DNA of 64,000 bases from Deinococcales bacterium (GCA_031414595.1 JANNVX010000098.1:32001-96000); one strand, 5' to 3'. Positions 37,960 to 54,278 are shown, counted from the first letter of the stretch. Notes: a model not told the origin generated them from the sequence alone. A program made the numbers and translations.

Positions 37960-37963
37960 GAAT

Positions 37964-38686
37964 ATGAGTCAAACTGCCGAACAAGAATACATGGAACGAC
38001 TGACCCAAGCAGTCAACAACAGTGTGGATTTTAATCAAGAATTTAAGTCTGACTTACACCAATTCAAACTCGAGCAGTTTTACGAAATGTTTGCTCAAGA
38101 AATTCTGTTTTACAAACCTATTGAACTCTTAAACGGTCAAGTCTGGGGCGAAGGAATTCTCGTTACTTACGACGCTGACGACATGAAAAAACTGCATCAC
38201 TCGAGAATACTGATACCAGACCAGCCTGTCGAACTGATTAACGGACATTTTTTCAAAACACCAATATCCACACAAGCCCAAACCAATGCAGCCATTGATT
38301 TAAGCACCGAAATGCTTAGAGGATTAGGTGACAATGCTATTTCTCGAGGCGGTTATGACATCGAACTTGGTGCAAAATTTGTGGTTTCCCCAGAAATTGC
38401 CATTCTACAAGCCCCTCGGGAACGATACAATCATCGCAACGCCACTCTCGGCGACGTGTACTTATTGGTCGAAGTTCTAGCCGAAAAACCTAAGTATTGG
38501 GATTACAAACTTTCAGCCTATGCTCGAGCTTGCGTACCAGAACTCTGGGTGCTGAATACAAGCACCCAACAACTTGAGATTTATGCAGACTCAGACGGTG
38601 TGGAATTCTTGCATCAAGTCAAGCTCGAAAAAGGACAACCAGCCACACCACTCGAGTTTCCAGATGTGCAAATCAGGTGGTGGTGA
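37964..38686 (+). CDS. Uma2 family endonuclease-like protein (N-terminally extended, degenerate)
   Basis: Two ELLNG/ELING segments, LLVEV, KLSAYARACVPELWVLN. Confidence 0.75.
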   Translation: MSQTAEQEYMERLTQAVNNSVDFNQEFKSDLHQFKLEQFYEMFAQEILFYKPIELLNGQVWGEGILVTYDADDMKKLHHSRILIPDQPVELINGHFFKTPISTQAQTNAAIDLSTEMLRGLGDNAISRGGYDIELGAKFVVSPEIAILQAPRERYNHRNATLGDVYLLVEVLAEKPKYWDYKLSAYARACVPELWVLNTSTQQLEIYADSDGVEFLHQVKLEKGQPATPLEFPDVQIRWW

Positions 38687-39252
38687 TGACCCAAATTTTA
38701 GAACGCCCACAAGACGCTAATTACCCACATCGGTTTAGTGTTCTCGAGTTTGAACGCTTGTTTGAAGCAGGGGTTTTTGGTGAAGAAATTCAAGTTGAAT
38801 TGCTAGACGGAGAAATTTTTGTTATGCCAGAAATGGGAGATGACCACGCCGACAGTCTGACACGACTGACCAAACAACTGATTCGTAAACTCGGTGATTA
38901 CGTCGAGCTTGCCCCACAAATTCCGTTGGATTTACCCGAAGGTGAAACCCGTCCACTGCCCGATTTTATTGTGATTGACATTAAAAAATATGGTCGGCGT
39001 AAACCGATTCCTAGCGATGTGTTCTTCTTAATCGAAATTTCGGATACTACACTGCATAAAGACCGCAACCGCAAAGCCCAAATTTATGCCCGAAACGGGA
39101 TTCTCGAGTATTGGATTGTGAACTTAAAAAACAAGCAACTCGAGGTCTATCGCAACCCAGAAAATGGTGTTTACCCAAAACCACAAATTTTGCAAATCGG
39201 TCAAGCAATTGCGCCCTTGGCATTCCCAGATGTTTTAATTGAGTGGTGGTGA
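38686..39252 (+). CDS. Uma2 family endonuclease
   Basis: VELLDGEI, PLPDF, LIEISDTT, DRNRKAQIYARNGILEYWIVN. Confidence 0.9.
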   Translation: MTQILERPQDANYPHRFSVLEFERLFEAGVFGEEIQVELLDGEIFVMPEMGDDHADSLTRLTKQLIRKLGDYVELAPQIPLDLPEGETRPLPDFIVIDIKKYGRRKPIPSDVFFLIEISDTTLHKDRNRKAQIYARNGILEYWIVNLKNKQLEVYRNPENGVYPKPQILQIGQAIAPLAFPDVLIEWW

Positions 39253-39262
39253 AAGGAGATTT

Positions 39263-39502
39263 ATGAGTGACGACGAAAAGAAATTACTTCATGCGATTCA
39301 AGATTTACACTTTGCTGTCAGGGATTTAAGTCAGGGATTTGCTCCCGCCAGACCTCGAGACGAAAGTGATTTACGTTACCAATCAAATGAATCTTTTGGT
39401 TCTGGGTTTAATTTACTACATAAAGCATTTGAAGTGATAATAAAAAATCAGGAAAAACAAATCGAATTACTCGAGACTATTGCTCGAAATAGTCGTAGAT
39501 AG
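39263..39502 (+). CDS. Hypothetical protein
   Basis: RBS AAGGAG and ATG; 79 aa, coiled-coil-like C-terminus. Confidence 0.55.
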   Translation: MSDDEKKLLHAIQDLHFAVRDLSQGFAPARPRDESDLRYQSNESFGSGFNLLHKAFEVIIKNQEKQIELLETIARNSRR

Positions 39503-39518
39503 TTTTGGAGGTTCAACC

Positions 39519-40100
39519 GTGAGTTTCTTTACCAATCAACAAGCCCTTGTTCAAGACATTCTCTCGAGATACCCAAAAGGACGCGAACGCAGCGCGGTGA
39601 TGCCGCTCCTGCGCGAAGTCCAGAATGCCGAAGGCTATGTCTCGGATGCGGCTTGTGCTGAAATCGCGCAAATCATCGAAAGTACCGCCACCGAAGTCAA
39701 ATCAGTCATGAGCTTCTACAGCACCTACTCGAGCAGCCCGACAGGAAAGTATCACCTTCAAGTCTGCATGACCTTATCCTGTGCGTTGCAAGGTTCTGAC
39801 CAAATGTGGGATTACTTGTGCGAAACCCTTGATATTGGCGTGGGCGATGTTACCCCAGATGGCTTATTCAGCGTCCAGAAAGTCGAATGTCTAGGCTCAT
39901 GTGGCACTGCGCCCCTGATGCAAGTTTCGGATAGCGGTTATTACGAATGCCTGACCAAAAAACGCTTGGATGCCCTGCTTGCTGATTTCAAGGCTCGAGG
40001 CGATGGCAGTATGCCCGAATCGGATACCCAAGCCCCAGTCTTTATTCAAAGAAATGGTGATGTGGTGAGCCAAATCACTGCCGAAGGAGCAAGTTTATGA
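39519..40100 (+). CDS. nuoE: NADH-quinone oxidoreductase subunit E
   Basis: RBS GGAGG, GTG start; VCMTLSC and ECLGSC [2Fe-2S] N1a ligands. Confidence 0.95.
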
Positions 40101-41455
40101 CTTTAGTTGCTGAAGCACCTGTAGCTGAAAAACCAAAAAGCATTACCAGTGGACTCGACCCGCGTTTCAAACCACGATTGTACGAACACGTTGGGCAAAA
40201 TAATTCGTGGACGCTCGAGTACGCCCTGCGTCATGGCGCTTACGAAGGTGCAAAACGTGCCTTGGCTGGAACACCAGAATCAGTCCAAGATGAAGTCAAA
40301 AAATCAGGTTTGCGCGGACGTGGCGGCGCTGGTTTCCCGACGGGCTTAAAGTGGTCATTTATGCCCAAAGAAGATGGCAAACCCCATTATTTGGTCTGCA
40401 ACGCCGATGAATCCGAACCCGGCACGTATAAAGACCGTTACTTGATGGAAGCCGACCCACACCAGTTACTTGAGGGAATGCTTGTGGGAATGCACGCCAT
40501 CCGCGCCAATGTTGGTTACATTTATATTCGCGGCGAGTACATTCTTGGCGCAAATCGCTTAAACGCTGCGATAGCCGAGGCTCGAGCCGCAGGGATTTTT
40601 GGCGAAAATGCGCTTGGTTTTGGTAAAAGTATGGAAGTTTTTGTACATCGCGGGGCTGGGGCATACATTTGCGGTGAAGAAACCGCGTTGATGAATTCAC
40701 TCGAGGGGCTACGAGCCAATCCGCGCCTGAAGCCACCGTTTCCTGCTCAAGCTGGAATTTTTGGAATGCCAAGCACTGTTAATAATGTGGTCAGTATCGC
40801 TTCGGCTGCCCTAATATTGCGCCACGGTGCGGACTGGTTCTCGAGCATGGGGACAGAAAAAAGCAAAGGGAATTTCTTGTTTCATATTTCCGGACCCGTT
40901 AAGCGTCCGGGCGTGTACGAATTGCCACTTGGCACAACTTACCGCGAGATTATTTACACTTGGGGCGGTGGACCAACGGAAAGCATCAAAGCCTTTAACC
41001 CCGGTGGCTCGAGTACCCCGATGCTTCCATTCACTGATGAGATTCTGGACATGCCAGCCGATTACGAAAATTGCGCTGCCAAAGGAACTTTTCTTGGTAC
41101 GGGCGGAATTATCTTGATTCCCCAAAATTGCGATATTGTCAATATGATGTACAACTATGTTCGTTTTTATGGTCACGAATCTTGTGGCAAATGCACCCCA
41201 TGCCGTGAAGGAATTGGTACTTGGATGAATCGTATCTTCCAAAAACTGATTTCTGGTAAAGGCGACCCGAACGATGTAAAAATTCTCGAGGATTTATTTG
41301 GCAACATCAAAGGCAAATCGTTTTGTTTGCTTGCCGATTCGTGCATTATGCCAGTGCAGAGTGCCATGAAACTTTTCCGTGATGAATTTGAATATATTGC
41401 TCAGCATGGTAAACCGATATATACAGGTTACGGCAATCGCTGGAAAGACGAATAG
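40097..41455 (+). CDS. nuoF: NADH-quinone oxidoreductase subunit F
   Basis: [49 protein letters not shown]. Confidence 0.97.
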
Positions 41456-41579
41456 ATTCTCGAGAAGGAGGTGAACCCGTGATGCAAGATTATTTATTTC
41501 AAAAGCTGCCACGCTCGAGCTTTGGGCGGCATTGCGGGTTTAGCTCCAAGTATTCTCGAATTGAATTGAAGTGGCGGAT

Positions 41580-42545
41580 ATGAAAGAAATTATTGTCCAC
41601 CAAGTCAACATTGCCCATTATCGGTTGCTCGAGCTAACGCTGTTGGCTGACCAAGCCAAACCGTTTTATGATTGGATTGAAAAAACTGCTCGACAAATCA
41701 CAGGCTCGCACTTAACCCTGAATGAATTGCTGCTGACTTGCACAAAAGAACAACTCAAAAGTATTGTGATGGCTTGTTATACCCAAACGACGCAACAAAA
41801 ACCATTTCTGTTTGATGGTGTTGGGCGAGCCTACCCCCATAAAAAAGCCTGTTTCTATTTTTTTGCATGGATGATACGAGATGCACCTCAACAACGACTC
41901 GCGCCACTTATCTCGAGAATGCAAAAACTTGTCAGACTCGAGAAAATAGTAATTGAAACAGATAGTCTAATCGAACTGATTTTCGAGTACAGAACGAATG
42001 TCAAGTCTTTTGAATGGCAAGCTGTTCGTGAGGTCGTGATTGACCGTTTAGAAGGCTCGAGGCGAAGTATCAGTGGTAACAAAATAGAAGCCGATGTGCG
42101 AATTGGTTTAGGAATTGCCTTGCAGTGGTATTACGCGGTTCATGGCAATTATGGTCAGTTCAAAGAAATTCAAATTGCTGATAAGCAAATCAAAGTCGGC
42201 AATCACACCATAGATGTATCTGCGAATTTAATTTTAGAGAACAAACAAAGTAAACAAATTTTTATTCCCGTGAAAACCCGAGAAACCGAAGGCGGCGGGC
42301 ATTCACACTTATTCACTCGAGACATCATGAATGCCATAACAGATATTCAATCAGCCAATTGTTTTATTGTGGCGGTCATCATTGCCGAAAATTGGTCAGT
42401 TCATGAACTCGAGACAATCAAAAATCAAATAGATTTGGTACTGTATTTCAACATGAACCCCAATGTTTTTACGGGTTTTGACCAAGCCTCACAAATACAA
42501 TTTAATCAACTTATCGAAAAAATTCTGCAAGGACAAGCATCATGA
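41580..42545 (+). CDS. Putative type II restriction endonuclease
   Basis: RLEGSRRSISG..IE, IDV...PVKTRE PD-(D/E)xK-like pattern; translationally coupled to a DNA MTase. Confidence 0.6.
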   Translation: MKEIIVHQVNIAHYRLLELTLLADQAKPFYDWIEKTARQITGSHLTLNELLLTCTKEQLKSIVMACYTQTTQQKPFLFDGVGRAYPHKKACFYFFAWMIRDAPQQRLAPLISRMQKLVRLEKIVIETDSLIELIFEYRTNVKSFEWQAVREVVIDRLEGSRRSISGNKIEADVRIGLGIALQWYYAVHGNYGQFKEIQIADKQIKVGNHTIDVSANLILENKQSKQIFIPVKTRETEGGGHSHLFTRDIMNAITDIQSANCFIVAVIIAENWSVHELETIKNQIDLVLYFNMNPNVFTGFDQASQIQFNQLIEKILQGQAS

Positions 42546-43456
42546 ACGGTCAGGTTTTCCTTGGGGATGCTCGAGAGATTGCCGTTAATCTCGAGTATCA
42601 TTCTGTTCAAAGTATTATCACCAGCCCACCCTATTTTGGATTGCGAAATTATGCTGACCAGCCAAGCCCAGCCGAAATTGGACAAGAAGCGACAGTTCAA
42701 GAATATGTGACGAACTTGGTCAGTATTTTCCGCAGCTTAAAACAAGCACTTAAACCTGACGGATTACTCTGGCTTAATTTAGGCGATACATACCGCGAAA
42801 AGTCCTTGCTGGGTATTCCGTGGCGCGTTGCTTTAGCTTTACAAGATGATGGTTGGTTATTGCGTTCGGACATTATTTGGCATAAACCCAACGCCATGCC
42901 CTCGAGTATTAAAAATCGCCCAACTACAGACCATGAGTACATTTTCTTATTTGCGCTCAACCGAGATTATTACTATGATGCCGATGCCATCCGTGAGCCA
43001 CACATTACATTCACTGAGCAATCCAAAATGAAAGGTGGGCGAAATCACTTTGGGAAAGAAGGAGGCACACCCGAAAATGGCAAGAACGCTGGCAATAGTA
43101 ACCTTCATGACGGACGATGGGATCAAGCCTTTCACCCAAAAGGCAGAAACAAACGCACTGTATGGCAAATACCTCTAAGTAAATTTAGAGACTCACACTT
43201 TGCGGTTTTTCCAGAAAAACTTGTTGAAACCTGTATTCTTGCTTCGACTCGAGTGTCTGATGTTATCCTTGACCCATTTGCGGGGTCTGGCACAACTGGT
43301 GTTGTTGCCACAAAATTACAACGCCGATTCATAGGTATAGAACTTGTGAAAAAATATCAAGAAATGGCACAGGCTCGAATAAACCAAGCCAACCCACAAA
43401 CCGATTTATTTAGTGTTCTGACAGCCCAAGAAGAAATGACTCATGAAGCCGCCTAA
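42542..43456 (+). CDS. Site-specific DNA methyltransferase, beta class (probable m4C)
   Basis: TSPPY motif IV before LDPFAGSGTT motif I; LWLNLGD, IIWHKPN, HFAVFP. Confidence 0.92.
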   Translation: MNGQVFLGDAREIAVNLEYHSVQSIITSPPYFGLRNYADQPSPAEIGQEATVQEYVTNLVSIFRSLKQALKPDGLLWLNLGDTYREKSLLGIPWRVALALQDDGWLLRSDIIWHKPNAMPSSIKNRPTTDHEYIFLFALNRDYYYDADAIREPHITFTEQSKMKGGRNHFGKEGGTPENGKNAGNSNLHDGRWDQAFHPKGRNKRTVWQIPLSKFRDSHFAVFPEKLVETCILASTRVSDVILDPFAGSGTTGVVATKLQRRFIGIELVKKYQEMAQARINQANPQTDLFSVLTAQEEMTHEAA

Positions 43457-43562
43457 GTTTAAGATAACTCGAGAAGGAAAACGATGAGCCAAGCCAACCC
43501 AAGTTTTAACCCCACTTTTTGCAAGTGCTGTTCATCATTGCACCATGCCTTATGCTCAGTCC

Positions 43563-43772
43563 ATGCCAAAAAAATCTCGAGAAGAGTTGAAAATTGCAGA
43601 GCAGAATTTCATTGAATTGCTTTGTAAAAATTTTAATGAACCAATAGAAGTGTCTTTTATTGAACTAGATACCAGTGATGAAGAAGCAAACCAGCGATTT
43701 TTAGAGTTTTTCAAGCAAGAGTTACCAAACGATTTTGATAAGTTGTTCTCTTCAGAAAAGGAAAAGGGGTGA
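43563..43772 (+). CDS. Hypothetical small protein
   Basis: TATGCT 6 nt before ATG; stop overlaps the next start (GTGA). Confidence 0.5.
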   Translation: MPKKSREELKIAEQNFIELLCKNFNEPIEVSFIELDTSDEEANQRFLEFFKQELPNDFDKLFSSEKEKG

Positions 43773-44047
43773 GTGAAATGTCTGTGACCATCGAAATTGA
43801 AAAAATCCATGCCAGTGCAATCAGTTTCCCCCGAGATGTGATTGAGGACTCAGAAACTCGAGAATTCAGGATTAAAGTTGTGGGCAACGAATTTGTTATT
43901 TATCCGGCACACATGAAATTCTTTGAAGTTGCCACACCTCAACAACGCGCCAATTTGCTGCTCGAGCGATTAGCGCACAATAAATCCAATCCAGATGCAC
44001 CTCAAATTCCAGATGAAGCTTTACGCCGCGAGAATTTTTACGAATGA
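43769..44047 (+). CDS. Putative antitoxin of the PIN toxin
   Basis: C-terminal APQIPDEALRRENFYE typical of PIN-associated partners; ATGA overlap. Confidence 0.6.
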   Translation: MSEMSVTIEIEKIHASAISFPRDVIEDSETREFRIKVVGNEFVIYPAHMKFFEVATPQQRANLLLERLAHNKSNPDAPQIPDEALRRENFYE

Positions 44048-44496
44048 ATATTTTTTTAGACACCAACATTTTTTTAAGACTGACCGATGAAAACTCGAGT
44101 CAACATGAACTTGTCGTTAAAGCTGTGGCGCAATTACTGGCTCGAGGAGACGAACTTTATTTTGCGCCACAAACAATTGTTGAATTTTGGGCAGTGGCAA
44201 CCAGACCACTACAAGCCAATGGTTTGGGGTTAGATGCCCAAACGATAGAACATAAACGAGAAGAATTTTCTGATGAATATAAAATGCTCGAGGAAACCCC
44301 AGCCTTATATGAAAAGTGGCTCGAGTTGGTCAAGCAACACGCGGTTCAAGGTAAGCAAGTCCACGACACCCGACTTGTGGCACAAATGTTGGTGCATAAT
44401 ATCAATACGATTTTGACAATCAACACGGCGGATTTTAAGCGATTCTCGAACATAACGGCTGTGCATCCAGAGCAAGTGCTAAAAGGTGAAGCATAA
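44044..44496 (+). CDS. vapC: PIN domain (VapC-like) toxin
   Basis: FLDTNIFLR, EFW.VATRP, GKQVHDTRLVA, ILT.N.ADF. Confidence 0.88.
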   Translation: MNIFLDTNIFLRLTDENSSQHELVVKAVAQLLARGDELYFAPQTIVEFWAVATRPLQANGLGLDAQTIEHKREEFSDEYKMLEETPALYEKWLELVKQHAVQGKQVHDTRLVAQMLVHNINTILTINTADFKRFSNITAVHPEQVLKGEA

Positions 44497-44549
44497 AGCC
44501 CAAGCAGAAAGCCAAAAGCCAAAGAGGTGAGTTAATGTCAGTTTTAGAA
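44484..44549 (+). repeat. Cassette-junction direct repeat, family J (copy 1)
   Basis: AAGCATAAAGCCCAAGC--AGAAAGCCAAA...GAGGTGAGTTAATGTCAGTTTTAGA. Confidence 0.8.
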
Positions 44550-44729
44550 ATGATTCGAGAAGTTCCAAAATTAACCCATGCAGAGCAAAGTTTATTGCTG
44601 CTCGAGTTGCAAAAATACTTGCAACCACCAGCAGATTTAAGCCAAATTCCAACCAATGGTATAGCCGAGTTATTCCCGTTCTACGAAGCCATTAACGCCA
44701 ACCATGATTTATCCAGAATTGTAAAATAA
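44535..44729 (+). CDS. Small partner protein of retropepsin module (copy 1)
   Basis: RBS GAGGTG; MSVL start; helical; paralogous to 46893, 52952, 53632. Confidence 0.7.
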   Translation: MSVLEMIREVPKLTHAEQSLLLLELQKYLQPPADLSQIPTNGIAELFPFYEAINANHDLSRIVK

Positions 44730-44737
44730 GGCAACCA

Positions 44738-45142
44738 ATGAAATCTGTAACCTACCCATACTTACCAAATAGACAAAATTCTCTGATGCCGTATCTGCCC
44801 GTTCAACTCGAGCAGCAAGGTCGGGTTATAGAAACTATGGCGTTGGTAGACAGTGGCGCAGTTTCCAGTATTTTGCCATATTCAATGGGACTAGCCCTAG
44901 GATTAGATTGGCAGTCAGCCCAACAAGGTTTAGATGTGATTGGAGCAGTTGTTTCACCTTCAAAAAATGTTCGTGCGGTACTGCATATCCCGCAATTCTC
45001 GGCACTCGAGACGGGGTTTTCTTGGGTTGAAGATGATAATAAGCCGTTAATTCTTGGGCAGAGGATTTTCTTTTATCAGTTCCAAGTTCAGTTTGACGGT
45101 CGGCAACCAAGTTTTACTTTGACAAGGCAGGAACAAGCATGA
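44738..45142 (+). CDS. Retropepsin-like aspartic protease (copy 1)
   Basis: MPY, ALVDSGA, GLALGLDW, PLILGQRIFF. Confidence 0.8.
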   Translation: MKSVTYPYLPNRQNSLMPYLPVQLEQQGRVIETMALVDSGAVSSILPYSMGLALGLDWQSAQQGLDVIGAVVSPSKNVRAVLHIPQFSALETGFSWVEDDNKPLILGQRIFFYQFQVQFDGRQPSFTLTRQEQA

Positions 45143-45187
45143 AGCCCAAGCTCGAGCAGAAAGCCAAAAGGGAAGATACAGATGGGT
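45134..45187 (+). repeat. Cassette-junction direct repeat, family J (copy 2)
   Basis: CAAGCATGAAGCCCAAGCTCGAGCAGAAAGCCAAAAGGGAAGATACAGATGGGT. Confidence 0.85.
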
Positions 45188-45203
45188 TACTCGAGGTCAA
45201 GCC

Positions 45204-46199
45204 ATGATAGATAAATCAGACCGAAATAAAACAATAGAATTATCTGAGGCAGAAAAAATGCTTTACTCAGAACGGTTAAGTCGTTTTGATCAATGTGCAA
45301 CCCAAGCCGATGTACAAAATAAAACCTTAAATCAAGATTTGTTCTCGGTACTCGAGTTTTTACCCACTGGTTTTGTGGATTTGTTGTTTATTGACCCGCC
45401 GTATAATTTAAGTAAAACCTTTAACGAAGTCAGTTTTAAGAAAACCTCGTTTGAAGAGTATGTGATTTGGGTAGACCTTTGGCTGTCCAAGTTGGTGCGA
45501 ACCTTAAAACCAAATGCTTCCGTCTATATCTGCTCGGATTGGCTTTCTTCACCTGCTATTTTTGAAGTTGCAAGACGTTACTTTATTGTCCGTAGTCGAA
45601 TCACTTGGGAACGCGAAAAAGGACGTGGTGCATTGACCAATTGGAAAAATTCATCTGAAGATATTTTGTTTTGTACAGTTTCAGATGAATATACTTTTAA
45701 TGTCGAACAGGTCAAACTCAAGAAAAAAGTGATTGCCCCATACCGCACCGATGATGGAATTCCTAAAGATTGGAGCGAAACCGACGATGGCAATTACAGG
45801 CTGACGCATCCATCTAACCTTTGGACAGACATCACCGTGCCATTCTGGTCAATGCCCGAAAATACTGAGCATCCGACGCAGAAACCCGAGAAACTGCTGG
45901 CTAAAATCATCCTCGCCAGTTCAAATGTTGGCGATATGGTTTTTGACCCATTTTTTGGCTCTGGAACAACCTTGGTGACAGCCAAAAAACTCGAGCGAAA
46001 CTTTTGTGGCGTGGAAATAGACCCATATTATGCTTGTATTTGCCAGAAGCGTCTCGAGATGGCAGAGTTAGACGGTGGCATCCAAGGCTACAGCCAAGGT
46101 GTGTTTTGGGAACGCAATACACTGGCAGAACAAAAATCTGAAGCCCCAAAGCCCAAAAAACGCACTTTGGCTCGAGAGCAACAGGAACAATTCTTATGA
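45204..46199 (+). CDS. Site-specific DNA methyltransferase, beta class (m6A/m4C)
   Basis: IDPPYN, HPTQKPE, FDPFFGSGTT. Confidence 0.92.
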   Translation: MIDKSDRNKTIELSEAEKMLYSERLSRFDQCATQADVQNKTLNQDLFSVLEFLPTGFVDLLFIDPPYNLSKTFNEVSFKKTSFEEYVIWVDLWLSKLVRTLKPNASVYICSDWLSSPAIFEVARRYFIVRSRITWEREKGRGALTNWKNSSEDILFCTVSDEYTFNVEQVKLKKKVIAPYRTDDGIPKDWSETDDGNYRLTHPSNLWTDITVPFWSMPENTEHPTQKPEKLLAKIILASSNVGDMVFDPFFGSGTTLVTAKKLERNFCGVEIDPYYACICQKRLEMAELDGGIQGYSQGVFWERNTLAEQKSEAPKPKKRTLAREQQEQFL

Positions 46200-46837
46200 G
46201 CCAAGTTTTTACCCATGGTTTTGAAACTCGCACCCTCGAGAGGCTGAATGCACTGGCAAAAACCATTCCTGTTTCGATTCTGGGCAGCCCCCGCTCAATT
46301 GGGGATACCATCCAAGATTTAATTGGACAGCACTTTCTCGAGTTAATGGGTAAGGAAATTTGTAAGACATACTCGAGTGAATCAGCACGGCGTTCAATGG
46401 CAGATGTGGCTTTTGAAGATTTTGATGGTAATTTTTATTCGGTGGATATTAAAACCCATAATTTAGGTACAAAATTTAATATGCCAAATTTGACTTCTGT
46501 GGAACGTTTAGCACGGCTTTACGAAAGTGACAAAGATTATTTTTGTGTTCTGCTGATTGCTTATGGTGTCGAAAACTCGAGTATTACTTTTGAAAGCGCT
46601 AAATTTGTGCCGATTGAACATATAGACTGGAATTGTTTAACCATAGGTGCGTTGGGTTGGGGGCAAATTCAAATTGCCAATTCAAACAAGTTTTTAACGA
46701 ATGCCACACAAACCAGAAAAGCATGGATGATTGAACTTTGCGATACGCTACTTGGTTTTTATCCTCGAGAAATTCTCAAAATTAACGAACGAATTGAGCA
46801 TTTTGTAGCCATTCGTCAGAAATGGATGGAGCGTTGA
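46196..46837 (+). CDS. Putative type II restriction endonuclease
   Basis: MADVAF...VDIKT PD-(D/E)xK pattern, FNMPNL, GWGQIQI; ATGA-coupled to the MTase. Confidence 0.65.
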   Translation: MSQVFTHGFETRTLERLNALAKTIPVSILGSPRSIGDTIQDLIGQHFLELMGKEICKTYSSESARRSMADVAFEDFDGNFYSVDIKTHNLGTKFNMPNLTSVERLARLYESDKDYFCVLLIAYGVENSSITFESAKFVPIEHIDWNCLTIGALGWGQIQIANSNKFLTNATQTRKAWMIELCDTLLGFYPREILKINERIEHFVAIRQKWMER

Positions 46838-46845
46838 TATGATGT

Positions 46846-46906
46846 CAAGCATGAAGCCCAAGCTCAAGAAGAAAGCCAAAGAGGTGAGTTAAATGTCAGT
46901 TTTAGA
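46846..46906 (+). repeat. Cassette-junction direct repeat, family J (copy 3)
   Basis: CAAGCATGAAGCCCAAGCTCAAGAAGAAAGCCAAAGAGGTGAGTTAAATGTCAGTTTTAGA. Confidence 0.85.
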
Positions 46907-47105
46907 TTATGTGCAACAAGCTAAAAATTATAGTTTAGACGAACGTCAAGAAATCATTGCCAGTCTCCAAGAACAAATTTTTGAGCAGCGACAAAAAACC
47001 ATGATAAAACCACGAAAAGATGGGGTGTTTGAAATTTGGTCTCCGACTGTAGATGCTGCTTCGATGGAAAAACTTCAAGAACGAGCAAGGCAGCGAAAAC
47101 TGTGA
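46893..47105 (+). CDS. Small partner protein of retropepsin module (copy 2)
   Basis: MSVL start, FEIWSP motif; GTGA overlap with the protease. Confidence 0.72.
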   Translation: MSVLDYVQQAKNYSLDERQEIIASLQEQIFEQRQKTMIKPRKDGVFEIWSPTVDAASMEKLQERARQRKL

Positions 47106-47527
47106 GCCGAATAGCCCGATTTCCGTATGCAGAATCAGCTACCAATGTGCGTATGCCGTATATAGATGTGCTTATTGATTCTGGCGAAGTAGCAGTTCGA
47201 GTCAAAGCTCTACTCGATTCAGGCGCAATGGTCAATGTCATTCCAAAGCAAGTAGGAGAACGGCTAAACTTAAACTGGGAAAAAGGAGTAGATATTGCCC
47301 TAGGCGGTAACTTAGGCAAAGCACCTGCTCGAGCCTTTTATTTGAATTGTACAGTACAGGGTTTAGAAGTGACACAACTAGAACTTAATTGGTCAATGCT
47401 CGAGGATATTCCTGTTATTTTTGGGCAGTTTGATTTTTTCCAGAATTTCGATGTGTGTTTTTCGTACTCAGAAAATGAAATTAGTGTGCGACCTAGGCGA
47501 GTACAACAGAATCAAGGTGAAGCATGA
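47102..47527 (+). CDS. Retropepsin-like aspartic protease (copy 2)
   Basis: MPY, ALLDSGA, GERLNLNW, PVIFGQFDFF..FDVCF. Confidence 0.8.
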   Translation: MSRIARFPYAESATNVRMPYIDVLIDSGEVAVRVKALLDSGAMVNVIPKQVGERLNLNWEKGVDIALGGNLGKAPARAFYLNCTVQGLEVTQLELNWSMLEDIPVIFGQFDFFQNFDVCFSYSENEISVRPRRVQQNQGEA

Positions 47528-47572
47528 AGCCCAAGCTCGAGCAGAAAGCCAAAAGGGAAGACACAGATGGGT
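47514..47572 (+). repeat. Cassette-junction direct repeat, family J (copy 4)
   Basis: AAGGTGAAGCATGAAGCCCAAGCTCGAGCAGAAAGCCAAAAGGGAAGACACAGATGGGT. Confidence 0.85.
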
Positions 47573-47668
47573 GTTGTGTAAGGTGGGAAAAGCCCCTCCA
47601 CAAGTAGATGTACTCAAGAAATTACAAAAATCAGGGAACAGCTCAAACGTTTTCAGAAGGTTAAAATA

Positions 47669-48037
47669 ATGGTTGATAAAATGAGTCAGAACAGAAACGT
47701 AAAAAGTGCATATAGTGCAACTCGCATTTCAATTAATTATCAAACCTATGTGGGCGCTCGATATATCGGTTGTGGGCTGACATTGCATTATCTTCCAGAT
47801 TCAGAATTACAAGTCAGTTGTACAGCAGAATTTCCTGTAAATGACAACTACCGAATTAATGTTTGTAAAGCGATAGAAAAAACTTGTCAAGAAAAGTTGT
47901 TTGTAGGACAATTTATTGTTGAAGAAATAGATTTTCATCCTATCTACTCGAGCCAAAATGCTTTTGAAAACGCCGCTCAACAAGCTGTTTTAGCAATTCT
48001 GGGCTTACTTTCTTTTAAGCCTCTCACAATGGAGTGA
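47669..48037 (+). CDS. Hypothetical protein, possible stand-alone EF-G domain IV / S5-domain-2-like fold
   Basis: IDFHPIYSSQNAFENAAQQA resembles EF-G domain IV YHDVDSSE.AF..AA. Confidence 0.45.
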   Translation: MVDKMSQNRNVKSAYSATRISINYQTYVGARYIGCGLTLHYLPDSELQVSCTAEFPVNDNYRINVCKAIEKTCQEKLFVGQFIVEEIDFHPIYSSQNAFENAAQQAVLAILGLLSFKPLTME

Positions 48038-48039
48038 CT

Positions 48040-50406
48040 ATGCCTAAAGTAATTGTGAATGATCGTCAAATCGAAGTCCCTAATGGTGCATCTGCTTTGG
48101 ATGCGGTTTTCCAAGCAGGTTTCGATGTGCCTTATTTCTGCTCTAACGAGTATCTCTCGCCGATTGGTGCGTGTCGAATGTGCCTTGTCGAAGCTGGCTC
48201 GCCGCGTAAAAATCCCGATGGTTCTTGGATTCTCGAGGATGGTGTTCCAAAACTGTTTTACTTCCCCGGTACAGTCGCAAGCTGCACACTGGCAACTTCC
48301 GAAGGCATGGTCATTAAAACCACCACTGAGGCGGCTGTCAAAGCCCAAGCTGGGATGATGGAATTCACGCTGATTAACCATCCGCTTGATTGCCCCACCT
48401 GCGATAAGGGTGGCGCGTGTGAACTCCAAGACCGAGCTTACGAGTATGGTTACGGCGAAGCGCGTTTTGAATTTACTCGCCGTCATGCCGATAAGCACCA
48501 TGCCCTGTCTGATTTTATTGTGCTGGATAAGGAACGCTGCATTCATTGCAAACGCTGTGTGCGTTACTTCGAGGAAATCCCGGGCGAAGAAGTGCTGGAT
48601 TTCATCGAACGCGGTGGGCATACTTTTATAGATTCGTACCAATCCGAAGACTTGGCGGGCGCAAAACTCGGTAATTTTAGCGGCAATATTAACGACCTCT
48701 GCCCTGTAGGAGCGCTGCTCGATAACGTCTCGAGATTCCGTGGGCGCAACTGGGAATATGACCGCACCCAAACCACCGATATGTCCAACGCCGATGGCTC
48801 GAGTATTTGGGTGGATGCTCGAACGGGGCGAATCGAACGCATTCGCGCCGCTCACAACAAAGAAGTTAATGAAATTTGGATTTCCGACGCACAGCGTTTT
48901 GGGCATGAATGGGTGGATGCCGATGCTCGAGTCCGCACGCCACTGATTCGTAAAAATGGCAAACTCGAGCCAGCCACCTTTGATGAAGCTGTTGAAGTGA
49001 TTGCAAAAGCCAATCTCGAGCCGAGCAAATTAGGTTTGTATACCAGTGCTGACATCACCCTCGAGGAAGGTGTGGCGCTTGAGTCGTTTGCTAAGACCAT
49101 TGCGACCATCAATGTAGACCATTTTCCGCGTTATAACAGCGCTCTGAGTGGTGTTGCTCGAGCCACCTTTACCGACCTTGCCAAAGCGGACGCAATTATC
49201 GTGATTGGTGCAGACTTGTACGAAGAATCTGGCACAGCCTACTTGCGAATCGAGGAGAGCTTGAAGGGTGTTATCACCTCCGACACGCAATTTAATCACG
49301 GTGCGCCTTTGGCAGATTTGCGTCTCAAAGAACGCATGGACAGAAAGCGCGGTAAACTGGCGGTCTTTGCACCAATTCCAGTGCAACAAATGAGCCACGC
49401 GGGAATCTCGAGCCTGTATGCAGTAGGTGCTGAACTCGAGCTTTTGGCGCAGATTAACCAAGCCAAATCGGGTAATGACTCGAGCAACGCCCAAGCCAAC
49501 GCTGCTGGCAAACTGCTCTCGAGTGCCAAAAACCCTGTGATTGTGCTGGGTAGCTTTGCGCTTGCCTCAGATGCCGAAAAAGTGTTGGCAGCCGCTAAGA
49601 AACTCGGTGGAAAAATCATGCCGATTCCAGCAGGTGCAAACGGCGCTGGACTCGAGACTTTAGAACTTGTACCAACCAAAAATGGGCGCAGTTTTGGGCA
49701 GTGGGACGGCTTAAAAGGCTTGTTCGTTTCGGGTAGTGCCATGACCAAGCGTCCAAAATCGCTCGAGATGTTGGTGGTTCACACCCATACCCTGACAGGC
49801 GCGGCACTCGAGGCGAATGTGGTGCTGCCAGCCCTGACTGCCTACGAGAAACGCGGCACAACCATGAATCTCGAGGGGCGCTTGTTGCCTTTGGCTGGGG
49901 CAGCCGTGGATGGTGGGCAAGGCGTGGACATGATTGGTGCGTTGCAAGTCTTATCCGATGCCATGAGTGCTAAACTCGAGATTCGTGGAACGCGCAGCGC
50001 CCAACGAATCCTGCAAGATAAATTTGGTCTCGAGATGGACAAAATTGCCGTTGAAGGTGCGTTTCCTGTGAAAACTGTCTCGAGTCGTTCAGCGCCAATT
50101 GTGCGCTCCACCACGGGCGAAACCGTACTGCTTGTGCCAAGAATGTGGTCTGAAAACATGCTCTCGAGCCAGCGCATCCGTGAAAGTGTCGGCGCAGATT
50201 ACTTAACTGTCAACTCGAGTGATGCCCAAAAAATGGGTGTGCGGGATGGCTTTACTTTAGAGCTAGAAGTCAACGGCAAACCTCGAGCCGTGACCGTTCG
50301 GATAGATGATGCGGTGTCTGCGCCAACGCTGCCCGCTTTGAATTCAGATTTGTCTGGGGCGCTTTCGAGTGTCAAAATAGCGGTCATGGCAGGAGGGGAT
50401 GATTAA
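48040..50406 (+). CDS. nuoG: NADH-quinone oxidoreductase subunit G
   Basis: [51 protein letters not shown]. Confidence 0.96.
50367..50405 (+). repeat. nuoG 3' end, duplicated at 51081-51119
   Basis: 36/39 identity with 51081-51119. Confidence 0.9.
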
Positions 50407-51048
50407 ATGAAAAAATGGTTACTGATACTGGTTTTACCCCTCTTTGCAGCTTGTTCAACTTTTGGTGGCGGCGAGCCTTGGGCGCGACAATTGCTTGCTC
50501 CGTCAGATAACACTTACCGTCAAGTCTGTGACTACACCCTGAGCAATCAACTTACTTCTAATCAACTCAGTAATTTTGGGGCAGCCGTCATTAAAACCGA
50601 GCAACTGGGGGATTTTAATGTTTTTAGTTCCACTTTCTTAGTGGGATTCACTTGCGGTATCCTCGAGCCACTTGCCAGAATCAATCCATCAGGAAAAGCC
50701 CAGTTGCTGCAAAGTAAAGAATTGGCGGATTTATCTCGCTTAGGGCGTTTTGTTGTTTCTACTCGAGTTCGGGTTAAAAACACCAGTCTGGAGAATAAAA
50801 AACTCACCCTAACTTTAGAAGATGAAAAGGGCGAAACCGTGCTGCAATTAAAACCAGAACCATTTATTGCGGGAACAGACGAAGAACCTCGCATTAGTTT
50901 TGCCCTGATTCCAGCCGATTACACCCCCACGCAATTACAAGCCTTTGAGAAAGTCCAAGCCATGTCTTTCAAAATTCAATTTGGAGAAAGCGAAGCCACT
51001 TTTCGTTTAACCCCCAAGGATTTTGGGGCTTTTCAGGTCAGTAAATAA
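50407..51048 (+). CDS. Hypothetical lipoprotein
   Basis: MKKWLLILVLPLFAAC lipobox. Confidence 0.7.
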   Translation: MKKWLLILVLPLFAACSTFGGGEPWARQLLAPSDNTYRQVCDYTLSNQLTSNQLSNFGAAVIKTEQLGDFNVFSSTFLVGFTCGILEPLARINPSGKAQLLQSKELADLSRLGRFVVSTRVRVKNTSLENKKLTLTLEDEKGETVLQLKPEPFIAGTDEEPRISFALIPADYTPTQLQAFEKVQAMSFKIQFGESEATFRLTPKDFGAFQVSK

Positions 51049-51080
51049 ATTACGAGGTTCGGATTTTCGCGGGATACTTT

Positions 51081-51119
51081 GAGTGTCAAAATAGCAGTGA
51101 TGGCAGGAGGCGATGATTA
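51081..51119 (+). repeat. Displaced duplicate of nuoG 3' end
   Basis: Encodes the same [12 protein letters not shown]; all 3 differences are synonymous third positions. Confidence 0.9.
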
Positions 51120-51122
51120 GGT

Positions 51123-51308
51123 ATGACAATGAAAATGGTGTACTGGGAAGATGACGGTTGGCTGGTTGGTCGTTTAATTGATTATCCAAATGTGGCAACT
51201 CAAGCCGAAACCCTTGAAGAACTCGAGGAGAACATTAAGGATGCCTTTGAACTGATGTATCTCGAGGATGTACCAGCCAATCACAAGTTTAAGGAAGTTA
51301 CCATTTGA
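51123..51308 (+). CDS. hicB: HicB-like antitoxin (short)
   Basis: YWEDDGWLVG...YPNVATQAETLEELEENIKDA. Confidence 0.85.
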   Translation: MTMKMVYWEDDGWLVGRLIDYPNVATQAETLEELEENIKDAFELMYLEDVPANHKFKEVTI

Positions 51309-51496
51309 AGCACCGTGACTTGATTCGCTTACTTGTTCAAAATGGTTGTTTTCTAAAACGAAACGGCAAAAAGCACGATTTGTACATCAATCCAGCAACA
51401 GGCGCATCATCGGCAGTTCCACGACATTCGGAAATCAAAGAGACAATGGCACGAATCATTCTGAAAGAATTAAGTATTGAAATAAAAAACAATTAG
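51305..51496 (+). CDS. hicA: HicA toxin
   Basis: KHRDLIRLL..NGC...R.GKKHDLY.NP...VPRHSEI. Confidence 0.88.
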   Translation: MKHRDLIRLLVQNGCFLKRNGKKHDLYINPATGASSAVPRHSEIKETMARIILKELSIEIKNN

Positions 51497-51539
51497 GTGA
51501 TGCTCGAGATTCAAACGTTTTGCTAAAAGAGGTGAAGAA

Positions 51540-51761
51540 GTGAATCCAAATCCAATACGTCCGCCGCAGCAATTTCTTGTAGACCATCATGGAATAAAAA
51601 CCCATGTTATTTTGCCGCTCGAGGAATACGAGGAAATGATTGACCAGCTTCTTGATGCAAGGGATGCGGTCGAAATGCCAAAATTAGTCGTAGAAGCTCG
51701 AGCCAATAGTGAGAGGATAACGATTGAAGAACTTCGCAAACAATATGGACTCGAGCCATAA
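51540..51761 (+). CDS. Orphan antitoxin-like protein
   Basis: QFLVDHHG.KTHVILPLEEYEEM...DARD...ERITIEEL pattern of RelE-partner antitoxins. Confidence 0.55.
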   Translation: MNPNPIRPPQQFLVDHHGIKTHVILPLEEYEEMIDQLLDARDAVEMPKLVVEARANSERITIEELRKQYGLEP

Positions 51762-51801
51762 GAGAAAAAATGAAGTCTATGAACGCTAATAAGGAGTACA
51801 A

Positions 51802-52926
51802 ATGCTGATTGAAATTTTAATTGTTTTACTAAAAGCCGTTGGTGTAGCCCTTGGGCTACTCACCACTTTCGCCTACATGACCCTAATCGAACGCCGTTTG
51901 CTTGGGCGTTTCCAAATGCGTCACGGTCCAAATCGGGTTGGTGGTCCGCTGGGTTTGGCTCAACCACTTGCCGATGCCATCAAAAGCATTTTCAAAGAGG
52001 ATGTCAACATCACCCTAGCCGATAAGTTCGTCTATTGGATTGCGCCACTTATCGCCATCACCATGTCCTTAACCGCTTTCGGAGCAATTCCAGCCGGTCC
52101 TGCTGGTAGTTTATTCGGCACTGACCCTTGGGTGTTTAACCTCGATATTGGCTTGCTGTTTATTCTTGGAACAACCAGCATGGGTGTCTACGGCATTTTT
52201 CTGGGTGGTTGGGCTTCGGGCAGCAAATACCCGCTTTTGGGTGGGCTTCGTGCCAGCGCCCAAGTGATTAGTTACGAACTCGGTATGGGGCTTAGTGTCT
52301 TGGGGCTACTGATTCTAGTGGGCAGCATGAACTTGCTCGAGATTGTCAAATGGCAAACCGAAAATGGCTGGTTAATTCTGTTTCAGTGTGTGGCTTTCAT
52401 GACTTTTTTTGTTTCCGCCTTTGCCGAAACCAACCGCTCACCGTTTGACCTTCCAGAAGCCGAACAAGAATTGGTGGCAGGGTTTCTAACCGAATACTCG
52501 AGCATCAAATGGGCATTGTTTCAAATGGCGGAGTACGTGGCAATGATTACGGCTTCGGCAGTCATGGCAACCTTGTTCTTTGGTGGCTACAAAGGACCAA
52601 ATCTCGAGATAGCTGGGTTTAACATTGGCAATATTCCATTTATTTGGTTGTACGCTAAAATTGGTGTGTTTTTGTTTGTGTTTATCTGGGTTCGGGCAAC
52701 GCTCCCTCGGATGAGGTACGACAAGCTGATGCAATTCGGTTGGAAGTTCTTGTTTCCTGTGGCACTAGGTAACACGCTTGTGGCAGCAGGTTTCAGAGGC
52801 TACTTCCCCAAAGATACCCCTTGGATTTTAGGTGGGATTAGCTTGGTTGCTCTCATTATTATTTTTGCTGTGACCTCGAGAAACCCTGTGCGACCCGCGC
52901 CTGCTCGAGCCAATGCTGGCGACTGA
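51802..52926 (+). CDS. nuoH: NADH-quinone oxidoreductase subunit H
   Basis: ERRLL...[44 protein letters not shown]. Confidence 0.97.
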
Positions 52927-52959
52927 TAGAATGATTTTGGAGGTGAATGAAATGAGTGT
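52901..52959 (+). repeat. nuoH 3'-end/junction repeat, family H (copy 1)
   Basis: 54/59 identical to 53581-53639; partial third copy at 54249-54278; contains CTCGAG, TGaTAGAAT and GGAGG. Confidence 0.9.
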
Positions 52960-53164
52960 GATGCAAATGGTTGAAAGTGTAAGGGAGTTATCCATAGCCG
53001 AAATTGAACAATTACAAGATGCGCTCGAGAAAGAACGTTTGATGCAACTCAGTAAAATAGCTGCTAAACGTTGGGCTGGTAAGACTTTTGAATTGTGTTT
53101 CCCCTCGAGCAAAGATGTACCTGTCCACCCTTTTCAAGTTTTTCTCGAGAATCAAAAACCATGA
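52952..53164 (+). CDS. Small partner protein of retropepsin module (copy 3)
   Basis: RBS GGAGGTG, MSV start, FELCFP motif; ATGA overlap. Confidence 0.7.
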   Translation: MSVMQMVESVRELSIAEIEQLQDALEKERLMQLSKIAAKRWAGKTFELCFPSSKDVPVHPFQVFLENQKP

Positions 53165-53577
53165 ATTACGTTAAATTTCCGTATCAACCAATCAAAGATG
53201 ATTTATTCATGCCTTATGCGTGGGTGCGTTTGTCCTTTGGTAATACTTTTTGGGATGAATGGGCTTTGGTTGATAGTGGTGCGGAAATCAATGTTATTCC
53301 GTTTAGTGTTGGAGTAAAATTGGGTCTTGATTGGAATACATCTGAAGATGGTCCAACAATTGGTGGTAGTGCTTCTGGTGCTACGAAAACTGTTGAACTT
53401 ACTGTGACTATCGGTTCTTTTACAAATGTGTCAATGAGTTTTTGTTGGCTCAGTCATGATAATGTTAGGGTTTTACTTGGAGAACAAGATTTTTTTGAGA
53501 ATTTTGCTGTTTATTTTGATTTACAAAACAAAGAATTTGCTTTGTTTCAATATGCAAAGAAACAGGATGTTGAGTAG
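53161..53577 (+). CDS. Retropepsin-like aspartic protease (copy 3)
   Basis: MPY, ALVDSGA, GVKLGLDW, VLLGEQDFF. Confidence 0.8.
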   Translation: MNYVKFPYQPIKDDLFMPYAWVRLSFGNTFWDEWALVDSGAEINVIPFSVGVKLGLDWNTSEDGPTIGGSASGATKTVELTVTIGSFTNVSMSFCWLSHDNVRVLLGEQDFFENFAVYFDLQNKEFALFQYAKKQDVE

Positions 53578-53580
53578 CCT

Positions 53581-53639
53581 CTGCTCGAGCTAAAGCTGGT
53601 AGCTGATAGAATGATTTTGGAGGTGAATGAAATGAGTGT
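53581..53639 (+). repeat. Family H junction repeat (copy 2)
   Basis: Exactly 680 bp downstream of copy 1. Confidence 0.9.
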
Positions 53640-53853
53640 CGGACAAATAATTACACAACTTAAAAGTCTCTCGAGAAATGATTTGGTCTTAATCGTGAAT
53701 GAGGCACAGAAAACACTTCATGAACTTGACCCGATTGCATCCAATCATCTTGACTTGTCCAAAATGCCAAAGAACCCTGAAATTTGGTCGCCTTGGGATG
53801 AATACCAAGCCGCTGATGATATGGAAAGATTACTCGCTGAGGGAAAATTGTGA
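53632..53853 (+). CDS. Small partner protein of retropepsin module (copy 4)
   Basis: MSV start, EIWSPWDEYQAA motif; GTGA overlap. Confidence 0.72.
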   Translation: MSVGQIITQLKSLSRNDLVLIVNEAQKTLHELDPIASNHLDLSKMPKNPEIWSPWDEYQAADDMERLLAEGKL

Positions 53854-54272
53854 GTGATGTAGAGCGTTTTTCTTACATAATTAAGGGCGAAATGGGTAAA
53901 ATGCCGATTATTCCTATTCGTTTCTTAGATAATAATAAAGCCATTGAAGAACTAGCGCTTTTAGATTCTGGTGCAGCCGTGAGTATTTTACCGTACAGAA
54001 TGGGTTTAGCATTAAAGCAGGATTGGAATAATCCAAAATTATATGAGGCTAGGCTAGGTGGCGTGTTTCGGCATTTAACTGGAAAATTTGTGAAAGTGTC
54101 ATTGCAAATTGGGCAACTCGAGCCTCGAGATGTTGCATTCGTGTGGATGGAATCTGAAAATGTGCCGCTTATTCTTGGTAATGGTAATTTCTTTCAGATT
54201 TTTGATGTGTGTTTTTCACGCTTAAACAATGAAATTTCGGTGCGTTTAGCTCGAGCCAAAGCTGGTAGCTGA
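53850..54272 (+). CDS. Retropepsin-like aspartic protease (copy 4)
   Basis: MP, ALLDSGA, GLALKQDW, PLILGNGNFF..FDVCF. Confidence 0.8.
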   Translation: MSDVERFSYIIKGEMGKMPIIPIRFLDNNKAIEELALLDSGAAVSILPYRMGLALKQDWNNPKLYEARLGGVFRHLTGKFVKVSLQIGQLEPRDVAFVWMESENVPLILGNGNFFQIFDVCFSRLNNEISVRLARAKAGS

Positions 54273-54278
54273 TAGAAT
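54249..54278 (+). repeat. Family H junction repeat (copy 3, partial)
   Basis: GCTCGAGCCAAAGCTGGTAGCTGATAGAAT. Confidence 0.85.

Follow-up and report, generated by a model that had tools for sequence, protein, structure and literature searches.

Probable duplicated gene-tail and start-site leaders border variable gene cassettes in the nuo operon of a Deinococcales bacterium

Tandem accretion at att sites, as in ICESt3 and the related CIME units (an integrative and conjugative element, ICE, and cis-mobilizable elements, CIME), stacks units head to tail, each bounded by a directly repeated copy of the target gene's 3' end, and some of these units have no integrase. Rhs and contact-dependent inhibition (CDI) orphan cassettes and the minimal mobile elements of Neisseria hold divergent cargo between short conserved segments, and these segments let the cargo be replaced by homologous recombination without a dedicated recombinase. 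Transposons, which have a transposase and terminal inverted repeats, are flanked by direct target-site duplications of 2-15 bp. In the attI1 site of class 1 integrons, a short open reading frame (ORF) named ORF-11 couples ribosomes to the first cassette through its own translation, as described in PMC8876359. In homology-facilitated illegitimate recombination a homologous anchor and an illegitimate join together insert foreign DNA, partial duplications being possible, and PMC3240628 and PMC3784515 describe such events and merodiploids in naturally competent bacteria. The subject of this work is a short direct repeat found in four copies between nuoF and nuoG in a 64,000-nucleotide stretch of DNA from an uncultured Deinococcales bacterium (G000:C98:32001-96000, hereafter the window). 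We read the copies as duplicated leaders, each made of the tail of one gene and the start site of the next, which would couple translation across inserted cassettes and provide homology for their gain, loss and shuffling by general recombination. We put the probability of this reading at about one half.

The assembly that contains the window, G000, is metagenome-assembled and comprises 4.49 Mb in 120 contigs with 47% G+C. Names of nuo genes were assigned by reading translated ORF sequences. A 34-nucleotide word occurs exactly at 45135-45168 (copy B) and 47520-47553 (copy D) and with two mismatches at 46847-46880 (copy C); it had no match in 100 dinucleotide-preserving shuffles. Copy A (44489-44518) is degenerate, with ATA for ATG, 6 nucleotides missing and 7 extra. 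The four junction copies that an earlier note on this DNA had placed at about 44489, 45135, 46847 and 47520 are real and far beyond chance, the first of them in a degenerate state. Copies B and D are 98% identical across 53 nucleotides, and the junction copies are 94-100% identical overall. Alignment of the copies also bore out two alternating right-hand versions. Copies A and C continue as GAGGTGAGTTA(A)ATGTCAGTTTTAGA, which comprises a Shine-Dalgarno (SD)-like motif and the start of a small ORF (sORF), and copies B and D continue as GGGAAGAYACAGATGGGT. The four copies are as follows.

44484-44534, plus strand: copy A, degenerate short form; the stop codon TAA of the PIN gene stands at the position of the ATG of the other copies and is followed by an SD-like motif and the start of sORF1
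45128-45207, plus strand: copy B, long form, with a 22-codon mini-ORF at 45139-45207
46847-46892, plus strand: copy C, short form, LKK variant, with a 13-codon mini-ORF at 46851-46892 whose stop abuts the ATG of sORF2
47513-47664, plus strand: copy D, long form, with a 27-codon mini-ORF at 47524-47607

Each copy takes in the final three to four codons and the stop of whichever gene precedes it; these overlap an ATG that has an SD-like motif in front of it. The stop of the preceding gene shares bases with the ATG (GCATGA) in 10 of the 12 copies that have an ATG, and it is 5 and 13 nucleotides upstream in the remaining two. Because the upstream stops lie in the repeat, unrelated proteins end alike. 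The PIN protein, proteases 2 and 3 and a 131-residue ORF end in GEA*, and protease 1, a 431-residue methyltransferase and the protease of the relative G007 end in EQA*; the endings KGEA*, QEQA* and QGEA* listed in the earlier note are correct in the ORF translations. The left edge has two forms, and each equals the end of the PIN gene in one of two genera: GEA* for G000 and G005, EQA* for G011. The PIN gene of G014 ends in GCATGA as well, with no repeat behind it.

The SD-like motif, AAGGTGA or AGGAAC, lies inside the gene tail 3-6 nucleotides before the ATG in nine copies. The ATG opens a purine-rich, lysine-rich mini-ORF (MKPKLEQKAK...) that is mostly 13-27 codons long. In the short form the mini-ORF leads to an SD-like motif and the next start codon, and the long form has 27 more conserved bases. 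The mini-ORF ends between 23 nucleotides inside the next gene and 5 nucleotides before its start in 8 of the 12 copies, with an exact ATGA overlap of its stop and the next start in copy B of G000 and in G003. The ATG of the copy B mini-ORF overlaps the upstream stop, and its own stop overlaps the ATG of a methyltransferase gene. In copy D the 27-codon mini-ORF is directly followed by one of 18 codons that ends 4 nucleotides before the next gene. The junctions thus have the features of a coupling mini-cistron, namely an SD-like motif and ATG of its own and a stop near the next start. ORF-11 of attI1 would be the closest described analogue of such a coupling role: there too, according to PMC8876359, a junction short ORF has its own SD-like motif and takes its stop from neighboring sequence.

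In G005 the repeat's ATG very probably functions as a start codon, as judged from the reading frame and from homologues. It is in frame with a 297-residue BstEII-like enzyme, named bstEII by one source, and is the only plausible start of that gene. The invariant residues of the enzyme are found from F13 onward, a relative with 92% identity opens with MKPKLEQK, and ten homologues from other lineages have unrelated N termini. The enzyme (L011 3148-4041, G005) is 69-75% identical to homologues in distant lineages, attributed by the sources to Candidatus Albibeggiatoa, Desulfobacterales, Xenococcaceae, Blastocatellia and Geobacteraceae, which suggests that this restriction-modification (RM) gene has spread widely by horizontal transfer.

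The repeats lie in an island of 6.6 kb that separates nuoF (40097-41455) from nuoG (48034-50406). Upstream in the operon is nuoE, and downstream are nuoH, nuoI, nuoJ, nuoK and nuoL. All genes of the operon, including those of the island, are closely packed on the plus strand. Promoter-like and terminator-like sites were not above shuffles (15 versus 19.8 and 11 versus 15.0, respectively). The claim that the copies bracket two protease modules and an entire RM system held up, with the following three cassettes lying between A and B, B and C, and C and D.

44535-45142, plus strand: cassette 1, sORF1 (64 residues) and retropepsin-like ORF 1
45204-46837, plus strand: cassette 2, an N4/N6 DNA methyltransferase (45204-46199) and a 213-residue ORF, a putative restriction enzyme
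46893-47527, plus strand: cassette 3, sORF2 (70 residues) and retropepsin-like ORF 2 (about 47102-47527, ending QGEA*)

Retropepsin-like ORF 1 (44738-45142, 134 residues, ending QEQA*) contains a DSGA motif. The two retropepsin-like proteins are 29% identical, and sORF1 and sORF2 could not be aligned. The methyltransferase of cassette 2 matches Pfam PF01555 (E 7e-41). The 213-residue ORF had no match in Pfam, NCBIfam or PHROG, and a PDB sequence search returned a single chain at chance level (E 0.046). None of 13 island proteins matched PHROGs.

The repeat is confined to this gap. In its own 4.49-Mb assembly, blastn with four queries of 75-80 nucleotides gave matches of at least 23 nucleotides only within the locus. 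A genome-wide interspersed repeat, such as a repetitive extragenic palindrome (REP), a miniature inverted-repeat transposable element (MITE) or an uptake sequence, would have many dispersed copies, and only four local ones are present. Copies with up to three mismatches were found in 3 of 19 family genomes, with three in G000 (plus degenerate copy A), four in G005 and two in G001. These three genomes belong to one genus, and in each the copies lie on one contig in the nuoF-nuoG gap. Among 185,579 species genomes (one per species), the repeat was present, besides its own, only in the records of those two relatives, both Deinococcales metagenome-assembled genomes. A metagenome scan with a 30-nucleotide degenerate word gave no match. 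A second scan with a 20-mer gave 62 stretches, all of them chance, with at most 15 of the 40 following bases agreeing with the repeat; the G+C content of the locus was 56-76% for 60 of the 62 and 43-46% for the other two. In the nuoF-nuoG loci of 14 genomes, more diverged copies were observed at like junctions in G003 (one), G007 (two, both with CCT) and G011, which is of another genus (one, without the ATG). The weaker echoes proposed at 42536 and 43441 are matches of at most 13 nucleotides within other gene ends and carry no weight.

The genes between the copies differ among relatives. In G000 the order is PIN, module 1, RM, module 2 and a 122-residue ORF, with repeats between. G005 has nuoF, a small ORF, a 92-residue ORF, PIN, a copy, the BstEII-like enzyme with the 431-residue methyltransferase, a copy, sORF-protease 3, a copy, sORF-protease 1, a copy and the next gene, after which the contig ends. 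In G001 the order is nuoF, Uma2, the 131-residue ORF, a copy, Uma2, a copy, an Mrr-like ORF and nuoG. Module 1 of G000 is 90.8% identical in DNA to its counterpart in G005, which has a different position in the array, and the PIN regions are 94.6% identical. Homology between genomes begins and ends in repeats. The cargo between copies thus differs among G000, G005 and G001, showing that cassette content varies at the repeats, and the co-oriented, promoterless cassettes vary in both number and identity. The earlier note had proposed an array of excisable or shuffleable cassettes, to be abandoned if no relative or read set showed cassette-number variation bounded by the repeats. Its borders are real, its content varies and its repeat is not attC-like, as the note expected; excision is not evidenced, and the repeat does not look like a dedicated recombination site or the mark of a new integron. 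The copies of G001 are 96.7-97.5% identical to those of G000, and between the same genomes nuoF is 88% and nuoG 92% identical. G002 has empty or near-empty sites, with a nuoF-nuoG spacer of 117 nucleotides and a nuoG-nuoH spacer of 1 nucleotide. Other genes occupy the nuoF-nuoG gap in G006, G013, G014, G017 and G018. The sORF-protease module was considered as the sole carrier of the repeat and was rejected: the repeats of G001 flank Uma2, and there is no such module there.

A search for local direct repeats in window positions 30000-64000 yielded two further junction duplications in other gaps of the operon.

50364-50405, plus strand: native nuoG tail, 42 nucleotides, duplicated at 51078-51119 with 90.5% identity
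52901-52959, plus strand: nuoH tail, spacer and next start site (J1), duplicated at 53581-53639 (J2) and 54249-54289 (J3)

The nuoG-tail duplicate follows an inserted gene for a 213-residue lipoprotein-like protein and directly precedes a HicB-like gene. Two of its bases are those of nuoG in G005 and G003, where the allele of G000 itself differs. The nuoH-tail copies J1-J3 bracket two more modules of an sORF and a retropepsin-like gene, and the second protease there ends in ARAKAGS*, a copy of the nuoH end ARANAGD*. The nuoH end is the native one, since relatives share it. G003, G007 and G011 each have a duplicate after the inserted gene or module, and it matches the nuoH tail of the same genome. 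Duplicates of the nuoH tail were present in 4 of 10 genomes examined and were not found in G001, G002, G004, G006, G013 and G015. Differences between tail and duplicate are at third positions in 4 of the 4 clear cases of the nuoG pair and in 3 of 4 of the G011 nuoH pair; other pairs are mixed. Three gaps therefore have three unrelated repeats, each a copy of the local gene tail and start region, which argues strongly against a sequence-specific recombination site and for a junction that is duplicated with every added cassette. As read from these sequences, the three-gap pattern argues for general recombination together with selection for translational continuity.

The whole nuo operon (37964-54770) is a docking site for foreign-looking genes. 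Two Uma2 genes precede nuoE, the island lies between nuoF and nuoG, the nuoG-nuoH gap holds the lipoprotein-like gene, HicB/HicA-like genes and a Phd-like gene, and the nuoH-nuoI gap holds two sORF-protease modules and a 144-residue ORF read as helix-turn-helix-like. The content of these inserts differs in every relative examined, G002 being near-empty. All four retropepsin-like genes that tblastn located in the assembly are in the operon (44738-45142, 47102-47527, 53161-53577 and 53850-54272). Across the family there are 22 retropepsin-like matches in 12 of 19 genomes, 17 of them by coordinates in the nuoF-nuoG or nuoH-nuoI gaps; the remaining 5 are on other contigs, and 3 matches contain a TAG stop. 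Homologues are few, with 68 found, and scattered, the sources naming Prosthecobacter, Anaerolineae, Caldilineaceae and Microcystaceae. These genes could be linked to complex I rather than plainly selfish. A 45-nucleotide direct repeat with 88.9% identity was also observed after nuoJ (56029-56073) and after nuoL (58460-58504).

We infer a single polycistronic message that covers the island together with the nuo genes. On it, ribosomes ending one cassette would restart on the mini-ORF and pass to the next start codon, and through this relay the inserted cassettes and nuoG would stay translated. A cassette would travel with, or be retained with, its original translation initiation region, embedded in the last 10-45 nucleotides of the preceding gene. 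One route of joining would combine homologous recombination at one border with an illegitimate or short-homology join at the other, as described for naturally competent bacteria in PMC3240628, and a second would be unequal crossing-over between arrays; both routes would leave a copy of the tail at each border. Because every cassette has the same leader, any two copies offer 35-60 nucleotides of homology, in the same genome or in the DNA of a relative. Recombination at the copies, whether by unequal crossing-over, loop-out, Campbell-type or homology-facilitated illegitimate events, would add, delete and reorder cassettes, and exchange between copies would homogenize them. Concerted evolution or exchange of this kind is favored by the genome-specific nuoH-tail duplicates, by CCT in both G007 copies, by the occurrence of the LKK variant in one copy each of G000 and G005, and by the greater closeness of the G001 repeat copies to G000 than that of nuoF and nuoG.

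Several observations weigh against this reading. A length of 35-60 nucleotides is short for RecA-type recombination, and the regular, short duplicated tails (about 10-45 coding nucleotides) could reflect a dedicated mechanism. The mini-ORF is dispensable at least in copy A and in the copy of G011, both of which have lost the ATG. Three mini-ORFs overrun 14-23 nucleotides into the next gene, and one is 68 codons long. Changes in the mini-ORF frame number five synonymous at third positions, three at first and none at second, which is a weak excess (p ~0.09). Among the seven sequencing runs listed for the stretch none was of RNA. Logan contigs of four runs were compared with the locus, and no deletion or circle joint bounded by the repeats was present in these contigs, which cannot reveal rare variants. 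One joint was reported, from 41290 to 42056 (one contig, side 21), and it has nothing to do with the repeats. Depth is equal across the B-D segment, from which it follows that there is no sizeable subpopulation with a deletion.

Compared with the systems described above, the locus shares with ICE/CIME accretion its stacked units bounded by a copied gene 3' end. Unlike accretion units, those found here are 0.65-1.7 kb long with one or two genes, the array contains no integrase, and the repeat includes the start site of the next gene. In the Rhs/CDI and Neisseria elements the conserved segment belongs to a long toxin gene or to the core genes on either side, whereas here it is an intercistronic leader that recurs at every border. 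By analogy, homology-facilitated illegitimate recombination would explain the donor nuoG-tail copy before an imported cassette; in contrast to the laboratory events, the junction here is standing, multi-copy and conserved and is reused at each border. Transposon target-site duplication does not fit, since the units are 35-63 nucleotides long, the cassettes have no transposase gene and no terminal inverted repeats were seen. With integron arrays the locus has in common promoterless, co-oriented cassettes, often of toxin-antitoxin or defense type, a conserved repeat between them and variable content. It differs from integrons in that no integrase reaches the cut-off, no hairpin-forming imperfect palindrome is present, no RYYYAAC/GTTRRRY pair was seen in copies B and D, the array occupies an essential operon instead of following attI and Pc, and the repeat copies the local gene tail and so is different in each gap. 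No description of the repeat or array was found in the literature, and among the papers listed on toxin-antitoxin insertion in nuo operons none was relevant by title or abstract opening.

We consider it rather unlikely that the repeats are passive scars, left over from tandem duplications or illegitimate joins, kept alike by gene conversion and with no role in translation or exchange. The nuoG-tail and nuoH-tail duplicates do resemble by-products of insertion, copy A is decaying, and the two G005/G003-type bases of the nuoG-tail duplicate look as if they had been imported with the cassette. However, neutral copies should diverge as the cargo has done, and the copies instead stand above nuoF in identity between species. 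The stop-start overlaps and open mini-frames are kept in the diverged versions of G003 and G007, the repeat ATG very probably serves as the start of a restriction enzyme gene, and the cassette order at the repeats differs between species.

It is improbable that the array is a site-specific cassette system, integron-like or att-stacked, on whose repeat a recombinase encoded elsewhere acts in trans. Such a system would account for the co-oriented, tightly packed cassettes between copies of one highly conserved direct repeat and for the cargo differences among relatives. All four combinations of left and right variants exist, as expected from crossing-over inside a core, and several homology blocks end exactly at CTCGAG. 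However, the best match of the integron integrase model TIGR02249 in the whole assembly scored 56.9 bits against a cut-off of 265. Its seven sub-threshold matches are on contigs C88, C9 and C29 and none is on C98, and all 14 control genomes had sub-threshold matches too. No recombinase gene was found in the arrays of G000 and G001. The four copies, folded as DNA on both strands, gave z-scores of -0.65 to +0.74 (200 shuffles each) and so show no attC-like folding. An Rfam search of window positions 37000-53000 on both strands gave no match at E up to 1. Sites of Xer/dif type (pdif, or integrative mobile elements exploiting Xer, IMEX) have 28 nucleotides with arms of about 11 and a center of 6-8; the sole dyad here is GCTCGAGC, its flanks are asymmetric, and the repeat search of the window gave no inverted arm pair within the repeat. 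Nor would one sequence-specific enzyme explain three gaps with three unrelated local-tail repeats.

Still less probable is a functional small or regulatory leader peptide, for example a lysine-rich one that stalls ribosomes and tunes the cassettes, with the DNA repeat a consequence of selection on the peptide. A proline codon that occurs in all four forms (CCC, CCA, CCT and CCG) and the synonymous changes GCC to GCT and GAT to GAC speak for it, as does the SD-like motif 3-6 nucleotides before the ATG in nine copies. Against it, the numbers of changes are small, peptide lengths (13-68 codons) and C-terminal halves vary by copy, two copies have no ATG, and the change from LEQ to LKK alters two residues.

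In two runs the breaks between Logan contigs fall precisely at copies B and D, which are identical over 42 nucleotides. The 42-nucleotide repeat unitig has a depth of 26.3 versus 12.3, 13 and 14.3 in its unique flanks, and in the second run the three unique segments are near-equal in depth (35.8, 33.3 and 34.4). Equal unique depth and doubled repeat depth indicate two identical copies in series in nearly all cells. An assembly artefact, in which strain variants were strung together through the shared repeat, would be conceivable in a 120-contig metagenome assembly whose k-mer contigs break at B and D, and is extremely unlikely in view of these depths, of a repeat shorter than a usual short read and of arrays of like kind in the G005 and G001 assemblies.

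The palindrome CTCGAG is hyper-abundant, with 352 occurrences in the window (for example at 108-113 and 135-140) versus 7.8 expected. For this reason CTCGAGAAGGA, which the earlier note had listed at 41459 and 43468, is not specific to the repeat; it does consist of CTCGAG and a ribosome-binding motif. Genome-wide there are 23,235 sites (5.2 per kb). Each of the 19 family genomes has 12,028-35,442 sites, as against 128-7,001 in 22 genomes from four other families of the order. GAGCTC, the word reversed, is near-absent (6 in G000, 0-568 across the family), and G000 has only 0-6 occurrences of each of nine further 6-mer palindromes, among them GGGCCC (0), TGCGCA (2) and CGATCG (3). Flanks of CTCGAG show no preference except avoidance of CCTCGAGG, and distances between neighboring sites favor multiples of 3 (9908 versus 6226 and 6164). 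The GCTCGAGC word common to two junction families was tried as a special signal and rejected, since it is an ordinary member of the 16 flank combinations and accounts for 6.6% of CTCGAG sites. A literature search pairing CTCGAG with "highly iterated palindrome" gave no match. The family-wide CTCGAG, where several homology blocks end, might mark preferred crossover points. On contigs C101, C11 and C82 of G000, outside the window, a 35-37-nucleotide repeat with a periodicity of about 70 nucleotides has CTCGAG inside it; these arrays look like those of clustered regularly interspaced short palindromic repeats (CRISPR).

The remaining features of the island and its borders are listed here.

40097-41455, plus strand: nuoF, left island border, a 452-residue ORF with 80-97% DNA identity to relatives, beyond which content is variable
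41479-41583, plus strand: 34-codon relay mini-ORF after nuoF, with a strong SD-like motif, AAGGAGGTGA, and an ATGA overlap between its stop and the following start codon
41571-43456, plus strand: RM-like pair, a 324-residue ORF of no known family and an N4/N6 DNA methyltransferase (42542-43456)
43545-44496, plus strand: 75-residue ORF, 92-residue ORF and PIN/VapC-like ORF (44044-44496, ending KGEA*)
47669-48037, plus strand: 122-residue ORF of no known family, resident directly upstream of nuoG
48034-50406, plus strand: nuoG, right island border, a 790-residue ORF with 79-92% DNA identity in relatives

The open frame and ATGA overlap of the 34-codon mini-ORF are kept in G003 at about 75% DNA identity. 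It ends ...LKWRI in G000 and ...LKWWK in G003, to be compared with the ...LEWW ends of Uma2 genes, and Uma2 genes with such ends come after nuoF in G001, G006, G013, G014 and G017. The mini-ORF may be a still-translated remnant of a lost Uma2 gene. The methyltransferase at 42542-43456 matches PF01555 (E 4e-53), and the RM-like pair is found in G003 too. The PIN/VapC-like ORF matches PF01850 (E 1e-12) and TIGR00028 (E 8e-14). A 110-residue ORF at the matching place in G003 was read as a homologue of the 122-residue ORF. A single-copy leader of about 90 nucleotides (window 43470-43560, translated as ...LFASAVHPC..PYA..M) stands before differing first genes in the nuoF-nuoG gap of G000, G005, G001, G003 and G007, with 78-84% identity, and directly follows nuoF in G005. 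GC-rich hairpin-like elements (GGTGGG...CCCACC) follow some junction copies, for example at window 47575-47600; G007 has two copies of a unit of about 45 nucleotides (L015, about 1240-1430), and G014 has a longer inverted repeat (L017).

An essential, conserved complex I operon can thus host RM, toxin-antitoxin-like and nuclease genes in the long term. Copying the tail of the preceding gene and its start site with each cassette could both keep the operon working and create homology for exchange. If the roles in recombination and coupling are confirmed, the locus would represent an integrase-free route to integron-like gene shuffling and a natural design for insertion into an operon without polar effects. 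A bolder and rather doubtful possibility is an integron-like platform in an essential operon, either independent of a recombinase or using one not yet known, in which the portable leader is at once expression signal and crossover site. If that were true, this lineage would collect and reshuffle defense and addiction cassettes at sites between nuo genes at which an imprecise deletion would kill the cell.

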